Virus record (IMG/VR): IMGVR_UViG_3300048691_000224
Strand: one strand, 5' to 3'
Length of the DNA stretch: 64,000 nucleotides
DNA from: a virus
Lineage: Duplodnaviria; Caudoviricetes
Shown piece by piece: positions 2,822 to 55,187 of this stretch. A program made the translations under genes and the position numbers. The notes below the pieces were generated by a model, which saw nothing but the letters and a program-made list of their open reading frames with translations, searched no databases and was not told the DNA's origin. Positions within the stretch are counted from its first letter, which is position 1. Each line of letters starts with the position of its first letter.

Positions 2822-4048
2822 TCATGTTGTTTTATAAAAATCTATAAAACTAACTAAACGCTTCAACGAAGATGCCTTTGGTATTTCTACCGAAGGTCTT
2901 AATTCCTCTCGACGTTTGTAATCGGTCAATTCTTCCGATGAAAACCCATAAAGATCGTCAAGACCTTTATTTAAAATATTAACCGCAGCGTTTAAGTCTC
3001 TATCATGATTTGTTCCACAAGAACTACAAACCCAATCTCTTATGTGTAAACCCATATCAGTTTCTTTATGACCGCAATTAGAACACGTCTTTGAAGATGG
3101 ATACCAACGATCAATTTTCTGAAAGGACCTACCATACCAGTTCGACTTATATGCAATCATAGAAACTAGAGTCGACCAAGAAGCGTCAGAAATTGACTTC
3201 GCTAATTTTCGATTCTTAACCATCCCTTTGATATTCAAATCTTCCATGCATATGGTGTCATAATTATTAACTAACCACGTGGATAAGTTTTGATAAACCC
3301 AGTTTCTTTGATTAGATAATTTAAGATAAGACCTTGCAACTTTTAATCGTTGCTTCTCATACCTAGAACTGCCATTCACCTTTCGACTTAAATGCTGCTG
3401 TTCTCGTTTTAGTTTAGATTGGTTTTCTCTAAACCATCTTGGATTTTCAATCTTCATACCATTACTCATGATGCAAAGATGTGTAAGGCCCAAGTCAATA
3501 CCGATTGAGCGACCGGTATTTTGTTTCAACTCTATAGTTTCTTCAACTAGAATTGAAGCAAAATATTGGTTTGCTTTATTTTTAGAAATTGTTACATTCT
3601 TTACAGCGCCGGAAAACTTCCTATCTATAGACATTTTGATTGGCGTCATCTTAGGAATTTTAATCCTTGAAGTCTCAAAATTTACTTGAGAATTTGAAAA
3701 TTTCTGACCCGGAATACGAAAAGAGTCTATAGAAACTCCACGTTTCTTAAACTTCATTCTGCCCAGTTTAGACTTACGAGTTTTGGAAAAGAATTGACTT
3801 TTAGTTTCTTCAAAATCCATACGTTTTTGTTGGAGTGCGTATGAAATCGAATCGTTTAACCAACTAAACTCAGGTGTATCTTTTAAGGTTTTCTCACTCA
3901 TGGGTCGGTTAGGCCCTTCTTTTGAGAATGAGTTGAAGTTTGCAACTAACTGGTTCCACACAAAACGCACAGAACCGAAGACTTCAGAAAGATACTTTTC
4001 TTGAGTCTTAGTTGGATAAATTCTGTACTTATACGATTTTAGTTGCAT
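2822..4048 (-). mobile_element. tnpB: IS200/IS605-family TnpB RNA-guided endonuclease, no adjacent tnpA
   Basis: N-terminal YKYRIYPT HTH; RuvC motifs IGIDLG, MEDL and DRDLNAA with all three acidic residues present; CSNCG/CSSCG zinc ribbon. Confidence 0.92.
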
Positions 4049-15228: not shown

Positions 15229-15644
15229 TTGTGGGAGTTTCGTCTATTTCAGTGGATTATTTATCAGATCCGCGAGGATGGTAGATGTGCCGTCTAATAT
15301 GAACACAGTGGTATTAGGGTTTGTGCGTAACTCAAGCAATACCGTTTCTTGATAGTATCACGGTATTGAATAGTACTCAACTGATGGACAGATCTAGTGG
15401 ATATTTTTCGTATCGTACTAGTCCGTTTTATCAAAACTGGTCACAATACTTGCAATGCCAGCTATGACTGCTACAATAACTAACAACATAATAATACCAT
15501 AAACATTAAACATACTTTATTTCCTTATATCATACCACATACATTAATTCATTTGCGAGACTGTAGTCAACTCACAAGTACCATTGCAATAAAAATAGGG
15601 CAGATTAGGTGCCCTATTTTATCTTGTATTAGAATTGCAAATTC

Positions 15645-16037
15645 TTATCGCGCTGGTGGTGAGTAGCTTTGCAATTGGGCAGCAGTGCCGCCAATCTGTC
15701 CGAGGCGAGGTTGTAAAATCTGCCCATTAGGAGTCAAGATTTTTGCAAGCTGGTGGTAGTACTCCAATGAATTCACACCATTGCCCAGTGTCTTCTGAGC
15801 CATCAACTCGTACAATGGAAACAATGTTGCTTGGCGGCCAGAGATGATATCAACAAGGCGGCGTTTGTCGATCGAATCCAAGCTGCTCAACGGAACAAAG
15901 TGAACATTTCCATTTGCATCGACATTCAAGATTGCGACCTCTTCCCATACACCAGTTCCGGTAGGGTCAATCCATCCGATGTGTGGATATTTGCTTGGAC
16001 GAATCTCGATAGGGGTTTGATTTTTGTATTGAAACAT
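15645..16037 (-). CDS. Hypothetical protein
   Basis: ORF track; downstream of a late-promoter-like TAAATA. Confidence 0.6.
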   Translation of the reverse strand: MFQYKNQTPIEIRPSKYPHIGWIDPTGTGVWEEVAILNVDANGNVHFVPLSSLDSIDKRRLVDIISGRQATLFPLYELMAQKTLGNGVNSLEYYHQLAKILTPNGQILQPRLGQIGGTAAQLQSYSPPAR

Positions 16038-16150
16038 GATTTTATAGTAACTTTCTAGTAAAAACTCCCTGGTATTATGCAGAAGAGCGCTGGTAACGTC
16101 ACTATTTAGTATGCAAAAAACTGGGGTATTTTGACTCTAAGATGTATAGG

Positions 16151-16180
16151 CAAAAAAAGAGGCCCTTGTGAGGCCTCTTT
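16151..16180 (-). terminator. Rho-independent terminator ending the tmRNA transcript
   Basis: AAAGAGGCC/GGCCTCTTT stem followed by a T7 tract on the minus strand. Confidence 0.8.
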
Positions 16181-16505
16181 CTAGTTGTTGGGTGATAAGG
16201 TAACCAGCCTCAGCGTGTTGTCGGTGTTTAGGCGACTAACGCAAATAATTCATCGTTGTGAGTTATTATTTGTTTGCCAGATTTAACGACGTTCGTGCGT
16301 GTCGGATTGTAATTAAATTCTATTCTCTGTCAGTCGATTCTAGATCGCCCCCATCAAAAACACTATACTCGCACTGGACATAATGTTTTTGGTGGAGGCG
16401 TCGGGATTTGCACCCGATTGTTGCCAGTTTTACCAATTTAGGTTTCCAGAGTTTCTAGCCCGAGGCGGATTAGAGTACCGCACCCTTCGGAAGCTCATCA
16501 CAATC
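16181..16505 (-). ncRNA. ssrA: Circularly permuted (two-piece) tmRNA
   Basis: T-arm plus CGCCTCC-A-CCA (ends 16390) lies upstream of the 5' strand GGGGGCGATCTAGAATCGAC (starts 16352). The strands form a 7-bp acceptor stem with G3.U70. Tag frame ends ...HNDELFALVA* at 16228. Confidence 0.9.
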
Positions 16506-16519
16506 ATTTCTTTTACTTA

Positions 16520-17137
16520 TTATAGTTGAGACAGAACTTGGTCACACCGGTCATTGATATCGAGGCAATTAACGATGATCTGTCGAGAGGTAGGAACCAT
16601 CACATCAAAGTATTTGCGCATTGTGTCATCAACAAGGCTTGTGTAGTGTTTGTTTACAGATGCTCGTTGCGCCTCGACTTGAGGTGCAAAGTGCCCACCT
16701 TCGATGAACACGACCTTGTTATATCCTGCTAGTGCGGATACACACTGGTGATAGTAATTATCCAACCAGTCAGAGCGGCTCTGAACTCCACCAAGAGCCA
16801 TCAGCGCGTATACAAATAAATCCACTGGACTACGTTCCGTGAATATGATTGGATGTTGTAGTGGTGTGTGTCTACGTTGAACTTCAAGATATGTGGATGT
16901 ATCGTCAGCGAGTTTTCTGGTGAGGATCTCATTCTGGAATTTTATTGTCAGTTCTGGATCGGAATTAATCTGATCCAGAGTGACGCCCCAATCCGTTTGT
17001 ATCGATCGTGATGATTTTCTTGCGACCACATAGTGCCCATGGCACTCACTTAGTCGAGTAATTAGGGTAGTCTTACCAGCTGATTGAGCTGCGGTTATTG
17101 CGATGATTGATGGTGTTGACATGTGGAGGTTTACCAA
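16520..17137 (-). CDS. P-loop nucleoside/nucleotide kinase-like protein (AAA_28/NadR-like)
   Basis: IIAITAAQSAGKTTLI Walker A variant; TERSPVD motif. Confidence 0.7.
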   Translation of the reverse strand: MVNLHMSTPSIIAITAAQSAGKTTLITRLSECHGHYVVARKSSRSIQTDWGVTLDQINSDPELTIKFQNEILTRKLADDTSTYLEVQRRHTPLQHPIIFTERSPVDLFVYALMALGGVQSRSDWLDNYYHQCVSALAGYNKVVFIEGGHFAPQVEAQRASVNKHYTSLVDDTMRKYFDVMVPTSRQIIVNCLDINDRCDQVLSQL

Positions 17138-17340
17138 TTATCGTACTCAGTGAGATCTAGGACCTCATTGGTTACCAGATTTGTTACTGTTGTTATTAGA
17201 CCGAGTCCTGTTGGGGTGAAGGAGAATGTGTACTGGGTACCGAGCGCATCTCGCGATGCTGTGTGGTCTTTTACCCAAGTATCAAACTTCTCCTTGTCAT
17301 ATGTCGACAACACAAACATTGTTTGTGGCTCTATCGGCAT
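17131..17340 (-). CDS. Hypothetical protein
   Basis: ORF track; FSFTPTGLG motif; operonic. Confidence 0.55.
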   Translation of the reverse strand: MPIEPQTMFVLSTYDKEKFDTWVKDHTASRDALGTQYTFSFTPTGLGLITTVTNLVTNEVLDLTEYDNW

Positions 17341-17341
17341 A

Positions 17342-17566
17342 TCAGAATGTAGTTGGTTGTGCTACACTACGAACCAGTGCCATAAGACCTGTCTGGAGAT
17401 CAGTAGTACCAATACTTACCCAACGCTGATCGATGTCAGGATTTCCTCGAAGGCGTAAACACAGAGCCTCCAACACAACACCCTGTTGTTTGATCTCATT
17501 CATAAGATCAATTTCTACCTGAGAGAGGTCCCGATAGCCTTTGATGATTTTATGTTGGTTGTCCAT
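17342..17566 (-). CDS. acb2: Anti-CBASS protein Acb2 (T4 Vs.4-like cyclic oligonucleotide sponge)
   Basis: MDNQHKIIKGYRDLSQVEIDLMN...RWVSIGTTDLQTGLMALVRSVAQP closely resembles the Acb2 N- and C-terminal signatures as I recall them. Confidence 0.9.
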   Translation of the reverse strand: MDNQHKIIKGYRDLSQVEIDLMNEIKQQGVVLEALCLRLRGNPDIDQRWVSIGTTDLQTGLMALVRSVAQPTTF

Positions 17567-45000: not shown

Positions 45001-45086
45001 TGTTTGATGTGCCAGTTTCCAAACGACATGTTGCAAGCCCAAGGTCCCGGCGTGTGAGTTCCCTGTACTTTAGTTTGGTTACTCAT
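42085..45086 (-). other. Hypothetical early ORFs (42085-42384, 42369-42752, 42745-42951, 43072-43842, 43839-44243, 44225-44407, and tandem HTPGPW-family paralogs 44404-44736 and 44733-45086)
   Basis: ORF track; HTPGPW...ANARLI.AP.LL motif in the last two. Confidence 0.7.
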
Positions 45087-45594
45087 GTAGTTCCTTTGTC
45101 AATTCGACTTTGATTAATTCTTGTACGATTTTTGGATCCGCCTTGATTATCTTCAGTACACTCCCAACTAGTGCACCAATAGCTTTAGTATTACCGGACC
45201 GATATTGATCAGCCGCCCTCTCATTCTTTGCAATGACGTCACGCACTACAACTAAAATATCGGTAGAGCTTGCTTCGTTCATCAATCGTGAAGAACGCAA
45301 ATAGTCGATGATGTTGTACCCACAGTAATTATACCAACAATCATCGATAATTTTTTTCGCGTGAGAATATGATATAGTTTTGTGGTGTAGGCAACAAGCG
45401 ACATCTGCTGTCAGTTGAGTGAATCCATAATGATAGTACTCAATATCACCAATATCGGTGTCTTCCTTTTCCAATTTGGGTAGAATTTCATTTATCATTA
45501 GCTTAGCTAGATATGGGCCCGCCTCATTGGGATGGGCGCTAGTCAAACACGACATCATGATCGCACCCAATTTATCTTTTTCAGTTTCAGTCAT
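45079..45594 (-). CDS. Standalone GatB C-terminal/YqeY-like tRNA-binding domain protein
   Basis: VVRDVIAKNE...QYRSGNTKAIGALVGSVLK..KADPKIV resembles the GatB C-terminus. Confidence 0.8.
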   Translation of the reverse strand: MTETEKDKLGAIMMSCLTSAHPNEAGPYLAKLMINEILPKLEKEDTDIGDIEYYHYGFTQLTADVACCLHHKTISYSHAKKIIDDCWYNYCGYNIIDYLRSSRLMNEASSTDILVVVRDVIAKNERAADQYRSGNTKAIGALVGSVLKIIKADPKIVQELIKVELTKELHE

Positions 45595-53531: not shown

Positions 53532-55187
53532 TTAGGAGTCTACTAATCTATGCCCGCACGAAGTTGGCTGCCTTGCAACCACTCTTTCTGAATTTATTTT
53601 ATACAAGAATTGCACTAAAAACTGAACACAGTACTCGGTTGGATTTGCACCAACTACCACCTGATGGTTACAGGTCGTACTATTCTCATGGGCTTTATAG
53701 CTAATATTTCCCACTACCTTTGTACTAGCTCTACTATTTAAGCTATCGTTACACTGTTCAGATTTTAATGTAATCCTCACTTGATATCCATTATCAATGA
53801 AGTTTCAAACAAGTCAACAATTATTTAATTTACTTTCTGGCCGGTGCTGGAATTGATGCACAAAAATCGGCTGGTATTAGAGTCTCCAATTTTACTAGCC
53901 ACAAGCAATGTGGTGCTTGCATTTTTGCAAGCAAGTTCTGATGCATAATTACCTAACACAGCTGGTGCAGCTAATGGATTGTGGAATGATGCTGCAATGT
54001 AAATTAGTGTGTATACGGTCGCCATTTTGAATTTCCTTTATTAAACTTGCTCTTAGGGTCTATTATACCCCAAATCGGAGTAAGGTCAACAAGTAATTCA
54101 AGTTTTTATGGTTTTAATCAAAAAAAGTTCAGATATCGTGGTAATCCCAGTTTTCAATACATGAACCATATGATTCGATAAAATTATTGTAGGCAGCTTC
54201 CGTCGAGGCTTCTACCAACGATTCTAAATCTCCAACCACTTTACCGTACACTAGGTGTGATGCTTCAAAGTGGTTCACCCACTTGTAATAGTCTTCATGA
54301 ACTTCCGCGACCACTGTCCATCCAGACACTTCATCATATCCAATACAAACTGGATTAAGCGTAATTGCTTCTGTTCTTCTTTGCACACACGAGTTAACTT
54401 TAAATGGTAACTCGTCAACGGTAGGGACAATTGGTCTGTTCAAAAACTCGGTTAATGCTTGATTATTCATCATTGATTCCTTCGGAGTACAATCTATCTG
54501 CCTCATCGCACGGGTCTTCGTCGAGTGGATTAGTATCAATCATGATGTGCCCGATGTGAATTTTACCATCTTCAGTTGCACAGCACGGGTCACCAATGAA
54601 GTGTTGGCCAGCGAGTAGCGTTACTTTATTTTTCATGTCAAACTTTCAGTTACAAAACCGTTGATGCGTCGATACAATTGTTGTCTGATTCCAAAAACCA
54701 GTGTGCGTCAATTAGTACCCCATTCACAGGAACTCGACTAAGTTTTGTTGAGCTATACAGATTGATATTAATATAATGTCTCCAGAAGTCACCACAATCG
54801 AGGTATGCTTGTGGTGACCTTGTTATCTCACAAGCATACCGATATGCTGCACCGACAATAGGTGGTGAACGGTGTACAATATTCCGATACTTGCGCAGTA
54901 CGTCTGGGTGAGCAGTGTATTTAAACATTATTTTGATCTACTCACATCCAATGGTCATCTACCGACCCAAACGCCAGACTGTCGGTTTGCTGAAGTTCGA
55001 CGAGTGCACACTTAACCACATATCGACCGTGTTGTTCGTCTTGTGTTAGATCAGGGTCTTTCAAGAAATATTCTACGGCGGCACCTTCTATGAAATCCTG
55101 CAACTCTCCATCCAGAACATATCGTTCCTGTAGATGTGGCATCACATATTTCATCGATGTTACTAATAGTTTCTTTGAATATTTCAT
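53532..55187 (-). other. Small hypothetical ORFs (53825-54025, 54129-54539, 54650-54928, 54942-55187; 53532-53780 doubtful)
   Basis: ORF track; early promoters. Confidence 0.5.

Follow-up and report, generated by a model that had tools for sequence, protein, structure and literature searches.

A probable circularly permuted tmRNA gene in a large T4-like freshwater phage

The viral record IMGVR_UViG_3300048691_000224 was analysed over a stretch of 64,000 nt (the window). Between positions 16505 and 16181, on the minus strand, it contains a candidate tmRNA gene in which the two ends of the tRNA-like domain stand in reversed order. The locus raised two questions: whether it is a real, expressed tmRNA gene, and whether its permuted form tells anything about the host of the phage. 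We conclude that it is very probably a true tmRNA (ssrA) gene, circularly permuted and transcribed, which is carried by a large T4-like freshwater phage and belongs to a widespread phage-borne family.

The window (42% G+C) contained T4-type early genes: rIIA, rIIB, RNA ligase 1, a DnaB-like helicase, a dCMP deaminase, T4 DsbA, an Acb2/Tad1-like protein, an exonuclease and an array of about 22 tRNA genes (21 by ARAGORN). The Acb2/Tad1 hairpin domain (E = 1e-15) was found in a 74-aa ORF (17342–17566, minus strand) about 0.8 kb upstream of the tmRNA gene; its product probably acts as a sponge that soaks up cyclic-nucleotide defence signals. Next to the tRNA array lay another translation-related accessory gene, a 171-aa ORF (45079–45594, minus strand) in which a GatB/YqeY domain was recognised (E = 2.5e-17). 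A mobile element within the early region was represented by a 408-aa ORF of the phage transposase family phrog_506 (2822–4048, minus strand; E = 5e-120).

Layout and base pairing of the two pieces

In minus-strand order, CGCCUCC (the 3' strand of the acceptor stem), A73 and the CCA (16400–16390) came first, followed by a 37-nt spacer and then by GGGGGCG from 16352 (Table 1). This order, with the CCA ahead of GGGGGCG, was as described in the sequence-only reading. The 7-bp acceptor stem GGGGGCG/CGCCUCC included the G3·U70 pair (16350 with 16396), which was intact as had been claimed. With discriminator A73, the encoded CCA and a T stem UCGGG/CCCGA closed by a 7-nt loop, the tRNA-like domain was complete.

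The general permuted-tmRNA model of Rfam, RF04321, matched 16448–16228 (model positions 1–213) with 73.3 bits against a gathering threshold of 47 (E = 4e-12). The betaproteobacterial two-piece model, RF01850, scored 76.9 bits, below its curated gathering threshold of 84; with permissive filters it gave an end-to-end alignment over 16471–16153. In this alignment the phage codons CAC AAC GAU GAA ... GCC UAA lay opposite the consensus tag ANDE.FA.AA, and the tail loop CCUUGuuACcaAA and the terminal hairpin were also matched. These two scores, the second over the whole length, placed the match far beyond chance. ARAGORN called 21 tRNAs and no tmRNA in the window. The check suggested at the outset, ARAGORN and the Rfam permuted models, gave RF04321 above threshold, RF01850 below it and no call by ARAGORN. 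The RF04321 score supported the original assignment as a permuted, two-piece-type phage tmRNA gene.

The analysis showed a single minus-strand transcription unit (about 16512–16152), in which the acceptor piece is followed by a hairpin spacer and the coding piece. It also showed that the 7-bp acceptor stem, together with three P2 helices, allows the two pieces to pair.

Table 1. Features of the tmRNA gene in the window, with the piece they belong to or the basis of their assignment
Feature	Position	Strand	Piece or basis
Putative promoter: -35-like GTGTGA (16547–16542), 17-nt spacer, -10 TATAAT (16524–16519)	16519–16547	-	Read from sequence
Acceptor piece	16390–16505	-	Rfam alignments, L034 covariation, shuffles, 59 relatives
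Outer P2, 5' strand GAUUGUGAU	16505–16497	-	Acceptor piece
Lineage-specific stem-loop insertion	16496–16446	-	Acceptor piece
P2b AAAUU	16439–16435	-	Acceptor piece
P2a CUG	16427–16425	-	Acceptor piece
T arm UCGGG-UGCAAAU-CCCGA, loop UGCAAAU	16417–16401	-	Acceptor piece
Acceptor 3' strand CGCCUCC	16400–16394	-	Followed by A73
Encoded CCA	16392–16390	-	End of acceptor piece
Intervening spacer, 37 nt	16353–16389	-	Hairpin fold and relatives
Coding piece, 5' part	16287–16352	-	Rfam alignments, L034 covariation, shuffles, pair 6-67
Acceptor 5' strand GGGGGCG, G3 = 16350	16352–16346	-	Coding piece
D-loop analogue AUCUAGAAUCGA, UAG instead of UGG	16345–16334	-	Coding piece
P2 3' strands	16333–16327, 16319–16315, 16313–16305	-	Coding piece
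PK1 hairpin CGAC/GUCG	16304–16287	-	Coding piece
Tag reading frame CAC AAC GAU GAA UUA UUU GCG UUA GUC GCC UAA	16228–16260	-	RF01850 alignment, L034, relatives
3' tail hairpin, stem CUGGUU/AACUAG around conserved loop A-CCUUAUCACCCAA-C	16181–16207	-	Family comparison, L034
Intrinsic terminator: 9-bp stem (16180–16156), 7-nt loop, run of 7 U	16152–16180	-	Terminator scan, RF01850 terminal hairpin

Covariation was followed in L034, a syntenic locus, and in 59 unique full-length family members. L034 was the nearest relative, with 81% identity over the gene and the flanking ORFs in the same order. Across the permuted junction, acceptor pair 6-67 was U-A in 45 of the 59 relatives, C-G in 13 and A-U in one. 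At the T-stem pairs 49-65 and 50-64, 117 of 118 cells held canonical combinations, each of the two pairs being represented by four types. Compared with L034, P2a (CUG/CAG) and P2b (AAAUU/AAUUU) contained four double compensatory changes and no broken pair. Further compensatory pairs were found in the terminator (one, A-U to G-C), the spacer hairpin (one) and the tail hairpin (two). Both halves, on whose pairing in covariance models the sequence-only reading had staked its case, thus aligned and paired, with covariation.

The outer P2 (P2c) was formed by 9 bp between GAUUGUGAU (16505–16497) and AUUACAAUC (16313–16305), directly 5' of the PK1 hairpin. Such a helix was reached by just 6 of 2000 shuffles, and AUGAUUGU was common to the leaders of the window gene and L034. 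Because GAUUGUGAU/AUUACAAUC occupies the place of the outermost P2 of Rfam, we interpreted 16496–16446 as a lineage-specific stem-loop insertion. L034 had a different, perfect hairpin at the equivalent position. No second stem of the PK1 pseudoknot was identified.

The spacer, together with C75 and A76, folded into a 12-bp hairpin CAAAAACAUUAU/AUAGUGUUUUUG (16391–16355) that ended 3 nt before G1, confirming what had been noticed in the 37-nt spacer. Its energy was -12.6 kcal/mol (z = -3.5), and one of 200 shuffles was as good. The same terminal helix was present in 50 of the 54 relatives with spacers of at least 20 nt, in 34 different sequences. Spacer length in the family ranged from 5 to more than 150 nt. 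In L002 (1780–2214) and L211 (860–1020), the segment from CCA to G1 was 150 nt or more and opened with an RBS-like AAAGGAG followed by ATG or GTG. These spacers look as if a small ORF had become lodged in the intervening segment of the tmRNA gene.

At the 3' end, the tail loop CCUUAUCACCCAA was kept in five members on five different complementary closing stems of 3–9 bp. The loop agreed with the RF01850 consensus CCUUGuuACcaAA and was followed by the terminator, so that the subtype-specific 3' tail of RF01850 was present. Cofolding suggested a helix between leader and tail (16485–16460 with 16213–16190), which was rejected. Its z was about -1.6, with 28–35 of 500 shuffles as good, and the equivalent region of L034 was a self-contained hairpin. 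In a crude family-level duplex test, which was uninformative for P2 as well (P2 was judged by column-wise pair counts), its own partners were no better than cross partners or shuffles. It was also incompatible with the covarying tail hairpin (16207–16181).

The outer limits first assigned to the gene, 16505 and 16181, proved to be real helix ends: 16505 is the first base of the 9-bp outer P2, and 16181 the last of the covarying tail hairpin. The terminator noted after the tag frame was confirmed (9-bp stem and seven U at 16180–16152) and carried the gene beyond 16181, to about 16152. At the other end, a promoter may lie at 16519–16547, overlapping the stop codon of the upstream ORF. A consensus promoter scan did not flag it, because the -35 element matches three of six positions. 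L034 had the identical layout, GTGTGA-N17-TAAGAT. With 4 matches in the window where 2.2 were expected, the motif GGTGTGANCAAGTTCT showed no enrichment and was rejected as a repeated phage promoter motif; it may be conserved in L034 merely because the upstream ORF ends there.

Tag frame and RNA

On the minus strand, the reading frame of the coding piece spelled GKQIITHNDELFALVA up to a stop codon. The tag HNDELFALVA with its stop occupied 16260–16228, preceded by the resume context AUAACU at 16266–16261. All three differences from L034 within NDELFALVA were synonymous, and the two codons preceding it differed non-synonymously (ACU CAC in the window vs AAU CAA in L034). Judged from these substitutions, the tag frame is under purifying selection.

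A GCN codon, itself preceded by UAAAY, stood immediately before N-D in 42 of 56 relatives. Since this codon aligns with CAC in the window, CAC is read as the resume codon and (A)HNDELFALVA as the tag. Two tags had been offered before; (A)HNDELFALVA stood, and the longer (A)GKQIITHNDELFALVA was rejected, because the relatives put the resume codon directly before N-D, after UAAAY. A minor alternative is ACU, one codon upstream, which would give ATHNDELFALVA; for this codon, too, the -5/-4 rule is satisfied, by the AUAAUA repeat. The resume contexts were AUAACU-CAC in the window, AUAAAU-CAA in L034 and AAUAACU-CUG in L062 and L113, and thus the non-Ala resume codons were His, Gln and Leu, respectively.

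The E. coli adaptor SspB reads tag positions 1–4 and 7. For this reason, the changes of A2 to H and of Y7 to F could affect adaptor-assisted delivery, not ClpX recognition itself. LVA endings were present in 4 of the 56 family tags. AANDENYALVA is a standard strong degron, giving LacI a half-life of about 13 min at 37 C, vs about 8 min with LAA (PMC3511798). The earlier suggestion that VA in place of AA may alter ClpXP targeting is therefore unlikely, LVA being a proven degron.

A scan for DELFALVA followed by a stop gave protein C-termini only and no further tmRNAs. In IMG/VR contig L135 (10600–10658), and also in L136–L139, a phage protein ORF ended in ASNDELFALVA and a stop, its last nine residues being the NDELFALVA of the window tag. 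By a rough estimate, about 0.4 matches to DELFALVA plus stop were expected by chance; the preceding N is extra. The shared end may be fortuitous, or it may act as a built-in ssrA-like degron.

The stretch was partly present in six freshwater metatranscriptome runs, and window DNA was present in many freshwater metagenomes. Contigs of four runs were aligned to 15600–17200. Run X19 gave a 151-nt contig (16193–16343) with no differences. In X22, a contig covered 16198–16344 and passed directly into the Illumina adapter, and the rest of the 1.6 kb was uncovered. The X20 contig, of the highest depth, covered 16198–16458, spanning the spacer, with adapter after 16458. RNA from the tmRNA locus was thus present in environmental metatranscriptomes.

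The two contigs that contained only the coding piece (X19 and X22) were 100% identical to the window, and their upper ends lay 8–9 nt inside G1. The lower ends of the contigs, 16198 and 16193, fell within the loop of the tail hairpin. The coding piece was thus preferentially represented, which is consistent with two-piece maturation, assembled contigs by their nature proving neither ends nor strand. Unprocessed precursor or DNA was also present, as indicated by the X20 contig that spans the spacer. Beyond 16198, this contig continued for 28 nt (CAACAGAGGACGCGGGTCTCGATCGTTG) without match in the window, a tail that may be chimeric, belong to a strain variant or result from ligation.

Known systems, relatives and the tRNA-like domain variant

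A census of 402 phages with tmRNA gave 133 distinct forms, of which 53, mostly marine or aquatic, were two-piece by ARAGORN (PMC9004378, 2022). The 2025 tmRNA database, the source of RF04321, holds 79 bacteriophage sequences and 11,946 permuted ones (PMC11915505). The view that phage tmRNAs are mostly one-piece, held in the sequence-only reading, is outdated by this census and by the T-arm of the window gene, which occurred in more than 116 IMG/VR contigs. Because two-piece tmRNAs are already known to be common in phages, the gene is not of a new kind; it is a well-documented new example of a phage two-piece tmRNA. It had minor variant features, namely the His resume codon, a stem-loop insertion within the acceptor piece and a tRNA-like domain with G55/A18.

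Known phage two-piece tmRNAs include those of Methylophilales phage Melnitz and of pelagimyophages such as Mosig (PMC9004378). Like these, the window gene is a permuted ssrA in a large T4-like aquatic myovirus with tRNAs, with a promoter (here putative) and terminator of its own and a proteobacterial-style AND...A tag. The Melnitz gene is alpha-type and has a glutamine riboswitch in its 3' domain, whereas the best model for the window gene was beta-type. A search for a glnA-type glutamine riboswitch found no riboswitch family at E <= 1 in 15600–17200; a Thr-leader match (26 bits vs a threshold of 55) was the terminator and was dismissed as spurious. No DNA similarity was found among 50,697 deposited phage genomes (megablast of 5 kb; blastn of the gene), and metagenome contigs scanned with subclade patterns gave no match. 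ARAGORN, the tool of the PMC9004378 census, misses the window gene.

The gene shared with the betaproteobacterial tmRNA of RF01850 the gene order, the tag core NDE.FA..A, and the tail loop CCUU..ACC.AA with the terminator hairpin. It differed from this type in shortened outer P2 helices, the insertion of about 50 nt in the acceptor piece, the T-loop UGCAAAU and D-loop UAG (consensus UUCGAUU and UGG), the resume codon CAC in place of GCC, and in being phage-borne. To characterise the beta lineage, we relied on the RF01850 model and, as far as quoted in PMC9004378, on Sharkady and Williams (2004).

The T-arm and acceptor end were searched for as GGGUGCAAAUCCC, four variable bases and CCUCCACCA. 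In 60 of 117 matches (including that of the window), the CCA was followed by a spacer and then by GGGG...UAG...UCGAC within 110 nt. The remaining matches included longer spacers and tiny one-piece molecules consisting of the tRNA-like domain only. ARAGORN called a permuted tmRNA in 22 of 33 relatives tested, with AND..ALAA tags such as ANDEQFALAA; it missed 10 of the 33 loci as it did the window gene. The best clan model in Rfam varied among 13 loci, being beta for some (L059, 147.6 bits) and alpha for others (L002, 123.3 bits). The RF01850 threshold of 84 was exceeded by L059, L031 (127.1 bits) and L017 (104.4 bits).

The tiny one-piece genes were about 70 nt long (L003:995–1064; also in L018, L022, L027, L038, L056, L076, L081, L084 and L100). 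They consisted of GGGGG...UAGAUUCGAC, a short hairpin, the UGCAAAU T-arm and CCA, with no tag frame, and L003 scored 47.5 bits as tmRNA in Rfam. They resemble the tRNA-like-domain-only molecule of mycobacteriophage DS6A, which inhibits tmRNA.

RF04321 also scored above threshold in the jumbo phages XacN1 (L130:1471–1891), RsoM2USA (L132:1501–1696), Xoo-sp13 (L133:1501–1844) and Phosso (L131:1501–2103), each of which, like the window phage, carries a permuted tmRNA; with the same model, RAS14 gave none. The XacN1 gene is a single gene inside the long terminal repeat, and hence has two copies in the record. At the positions of the permuted tmRNAs, the GenBank records of XacN1 and RsoM2USA bear no annotation, and the paper on XacN1 is silent about a tmRNA. 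The RsoM2USA gene is apparently without a fully encoded CCA. A likeness to jumbo phages was also found in the 374-aa neighbour protein, which was 35–41% identical to proteins of XacN1, Xoo-sp13 and RsoM2USA; for XacN1, Xoo-sp13, CM1 and RAS14 the range was 37–41%. The jumbo-phage tmRNAs differed from that of the window in their T-loops (canonical except in Phosso, vs UGCAAAU), in their tags (ANANTFDYALAA in XacN1) and in their spacers (about 13 to about 410 nt, the latter in Phosso, vs 37 nt).

In the window gene, position 55 of the T-loop UGCAAAU is occupied by G instead of U, and UAG replaces the consensus UGG in the D-loop analogue. The identical T-arm was found in 69 of 185,579 species genomes, mostly of Elusimicrobiota, Acidobacteriota, Desulfosporosinus and Sumerlaeota, and in no alpha-, beta- or cyanobacterial genome among them. 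In the cellular genomes with this T-arm (L142–L210, including Vicinamibacterales of the Acidobacteriota), the tmRNA was one-piece where resolvable (36 cases) and the D-loop was xAG (UAG in 26 cases, UGG in none). By this comparison, G55/xAG is a natural covarying variant, consistent with the 18-55 tertiary pair, and not a defect. The native occurrence of UGCAAAU with xAG in one-piece tmRNAs of Elusimicrobiota, Acidobacteriota and others argues that the domain is functional.

A second T-arm with the identical loop UGCAAAU and the stem GUUGG/CCAAC was seen in the tRNA array of the window (53638–53654, minus strand). The tRNA-like element around it (53620–53760) received no call from ARAGORN or Rfam.

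Proposed function, origin and alternatives

In Caulobacter, tRNA-processing enzymes split a single precursor into two RNAs that base pairing holds together (Keiler, Shapiro and Williams 2000, as cited in PMC9004378 and PMC11915505). This tmRNA was taken as the maturation model for the window gene. It is chromosomal and alpha-type, and its processing and tagging were demonstrated experimentally, whereas those of the window gene are predicted. By this paradigm, as outlined in PMC11915505, RNase P would cut at G1 (16352), 3' trimming would expose the encoded CCA (16390), and the spacer hairpin would present both processing sites. Host AlaRS would then charge the RNA by means of G3·U70 and A73, and host SmpB and EF-Tu would bring it to ribosomes stalled on broken mRNAs. 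Translation would resume at CAC and append AHNDELFALVA, a ClpXP-type degron, and the tagged product would be degraded.

No SmpB domain was found in the 39 window ORFs of 120–200 aa or in the ORFs around the tmRNA gene, so the RNA must use host SmpB unless a gene lies elsewhere in the phage genome. The likely benefit is that ribosomes would be kept free during degradation of host mRNA by the phage. This would fit the translation-support genes of the phage, the approximately 22 tRNAs and the RNA ligase.

The RNA might instead serve as a decoy or competitor that titrates host SmpB or stalled ribosomes, or re-tags host proteins, the tag being secondary. Such a role is known from the DS6A molecule, which inhibits tmRNA in E. 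coli (PMC4131195, PMC11915505), and would agree with the tiny tRNA-like-domain-only versions among the IMG/VR contigs that share the T-arm (such as L003) and with SmpB not being found among the window ORFs. We consider it quite improbable, since the tag frame is intact, differs from L034 within NDELFALVA by synonymous changes only and closes with a degron of proven activity. This pattern indicates selection on the peptide, for which an RNA acting purely as a decoy would have no use. Still less likely, and largely refuted, is a non-functional remnant, either an ssrA fragment left by integration or a decaying pseudogene. In its favour, ssrA fragments are frequent in phages, where they serve as attachment sites (PMC9004378), ARAGORN made no call and the resume codon is not Ala. 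However, both pieces were complete, all helices paired and covaried, the gene had its own terminator and was conserved in synteny, and its RNA was present in metatranscriptomes preferentially over that of the flanking genes. The reading as a functional tmRNA gene was thus retained.

The permutation had also been taken as a possible clue to the host lineage. A recent capture, by which the beta-like form would mark a betaproteobacterial host with two-piece tmRNA, would account for RF01850 being the best clan model, with a full-length alignment including tail loop and terminator, and for the higher RF01850 scores of L059, L031 and L017. We regard it as distinctly unlikely. None of the 69 species genomes with the T-arm variant came from the alpha-, beta- or cyanobacterial two-piece lineages, and the relatives that share this T-arm fitted either the alpha or the beta model best. 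Xanthomonas phages had permuted tmRNAs, although one-piece tmRNA is ascribed to the class of their host (PMC9004378), and the Melnitz gene is alpha-type although its host is not an alphaproteobacterium (PMC9004378). The gene was, moreover, syntenic in L034, which points to vertical inheritance within phages. The clue to the host therefore fails, permuted tmRNAs being present in jumbo phages of Xanthomonas (XacN1 and Xoo-sp13), Ralstonia and Sinorhizobium, so that permutation says little about the host. From the Xanthomonas phages and Melnitz, it follows that the form of the tmRNA gene goes with the phage lineage and is of little use in inferring the host.

A further reading goes beyond this. 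The UGCAAAU/UAG permuted tmRNAs might be a phage-specific lineage that passes between unrelated phages of water and soil, whatever the tmRNA type of the host. Its origin would be either a separate permutation or an ancient capture followed by long evolution in phages. The variant tRNA-like domain and the non-Ala resume codons would then be adaptations to what the phage requires (e.g. escape from a host adaptor such as SspB), not drift. We hold this to be unlikely, if somewhat less so than the decoy or the recent capture.

With mapped helices, a defined tag and a known environmental distribution, this well-delimited, expressed phage tmRNA is a useful reagent. The frequency of two-piece tmRNAs in phages is underestimated, because ARAGORN misses genes and cultured jumbo phages (the XacN1 and RsoM2USA records) are unannotated; RF04321 recovers such missed genes. 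The form of a phage's tmRNA should not serve to guess its host.
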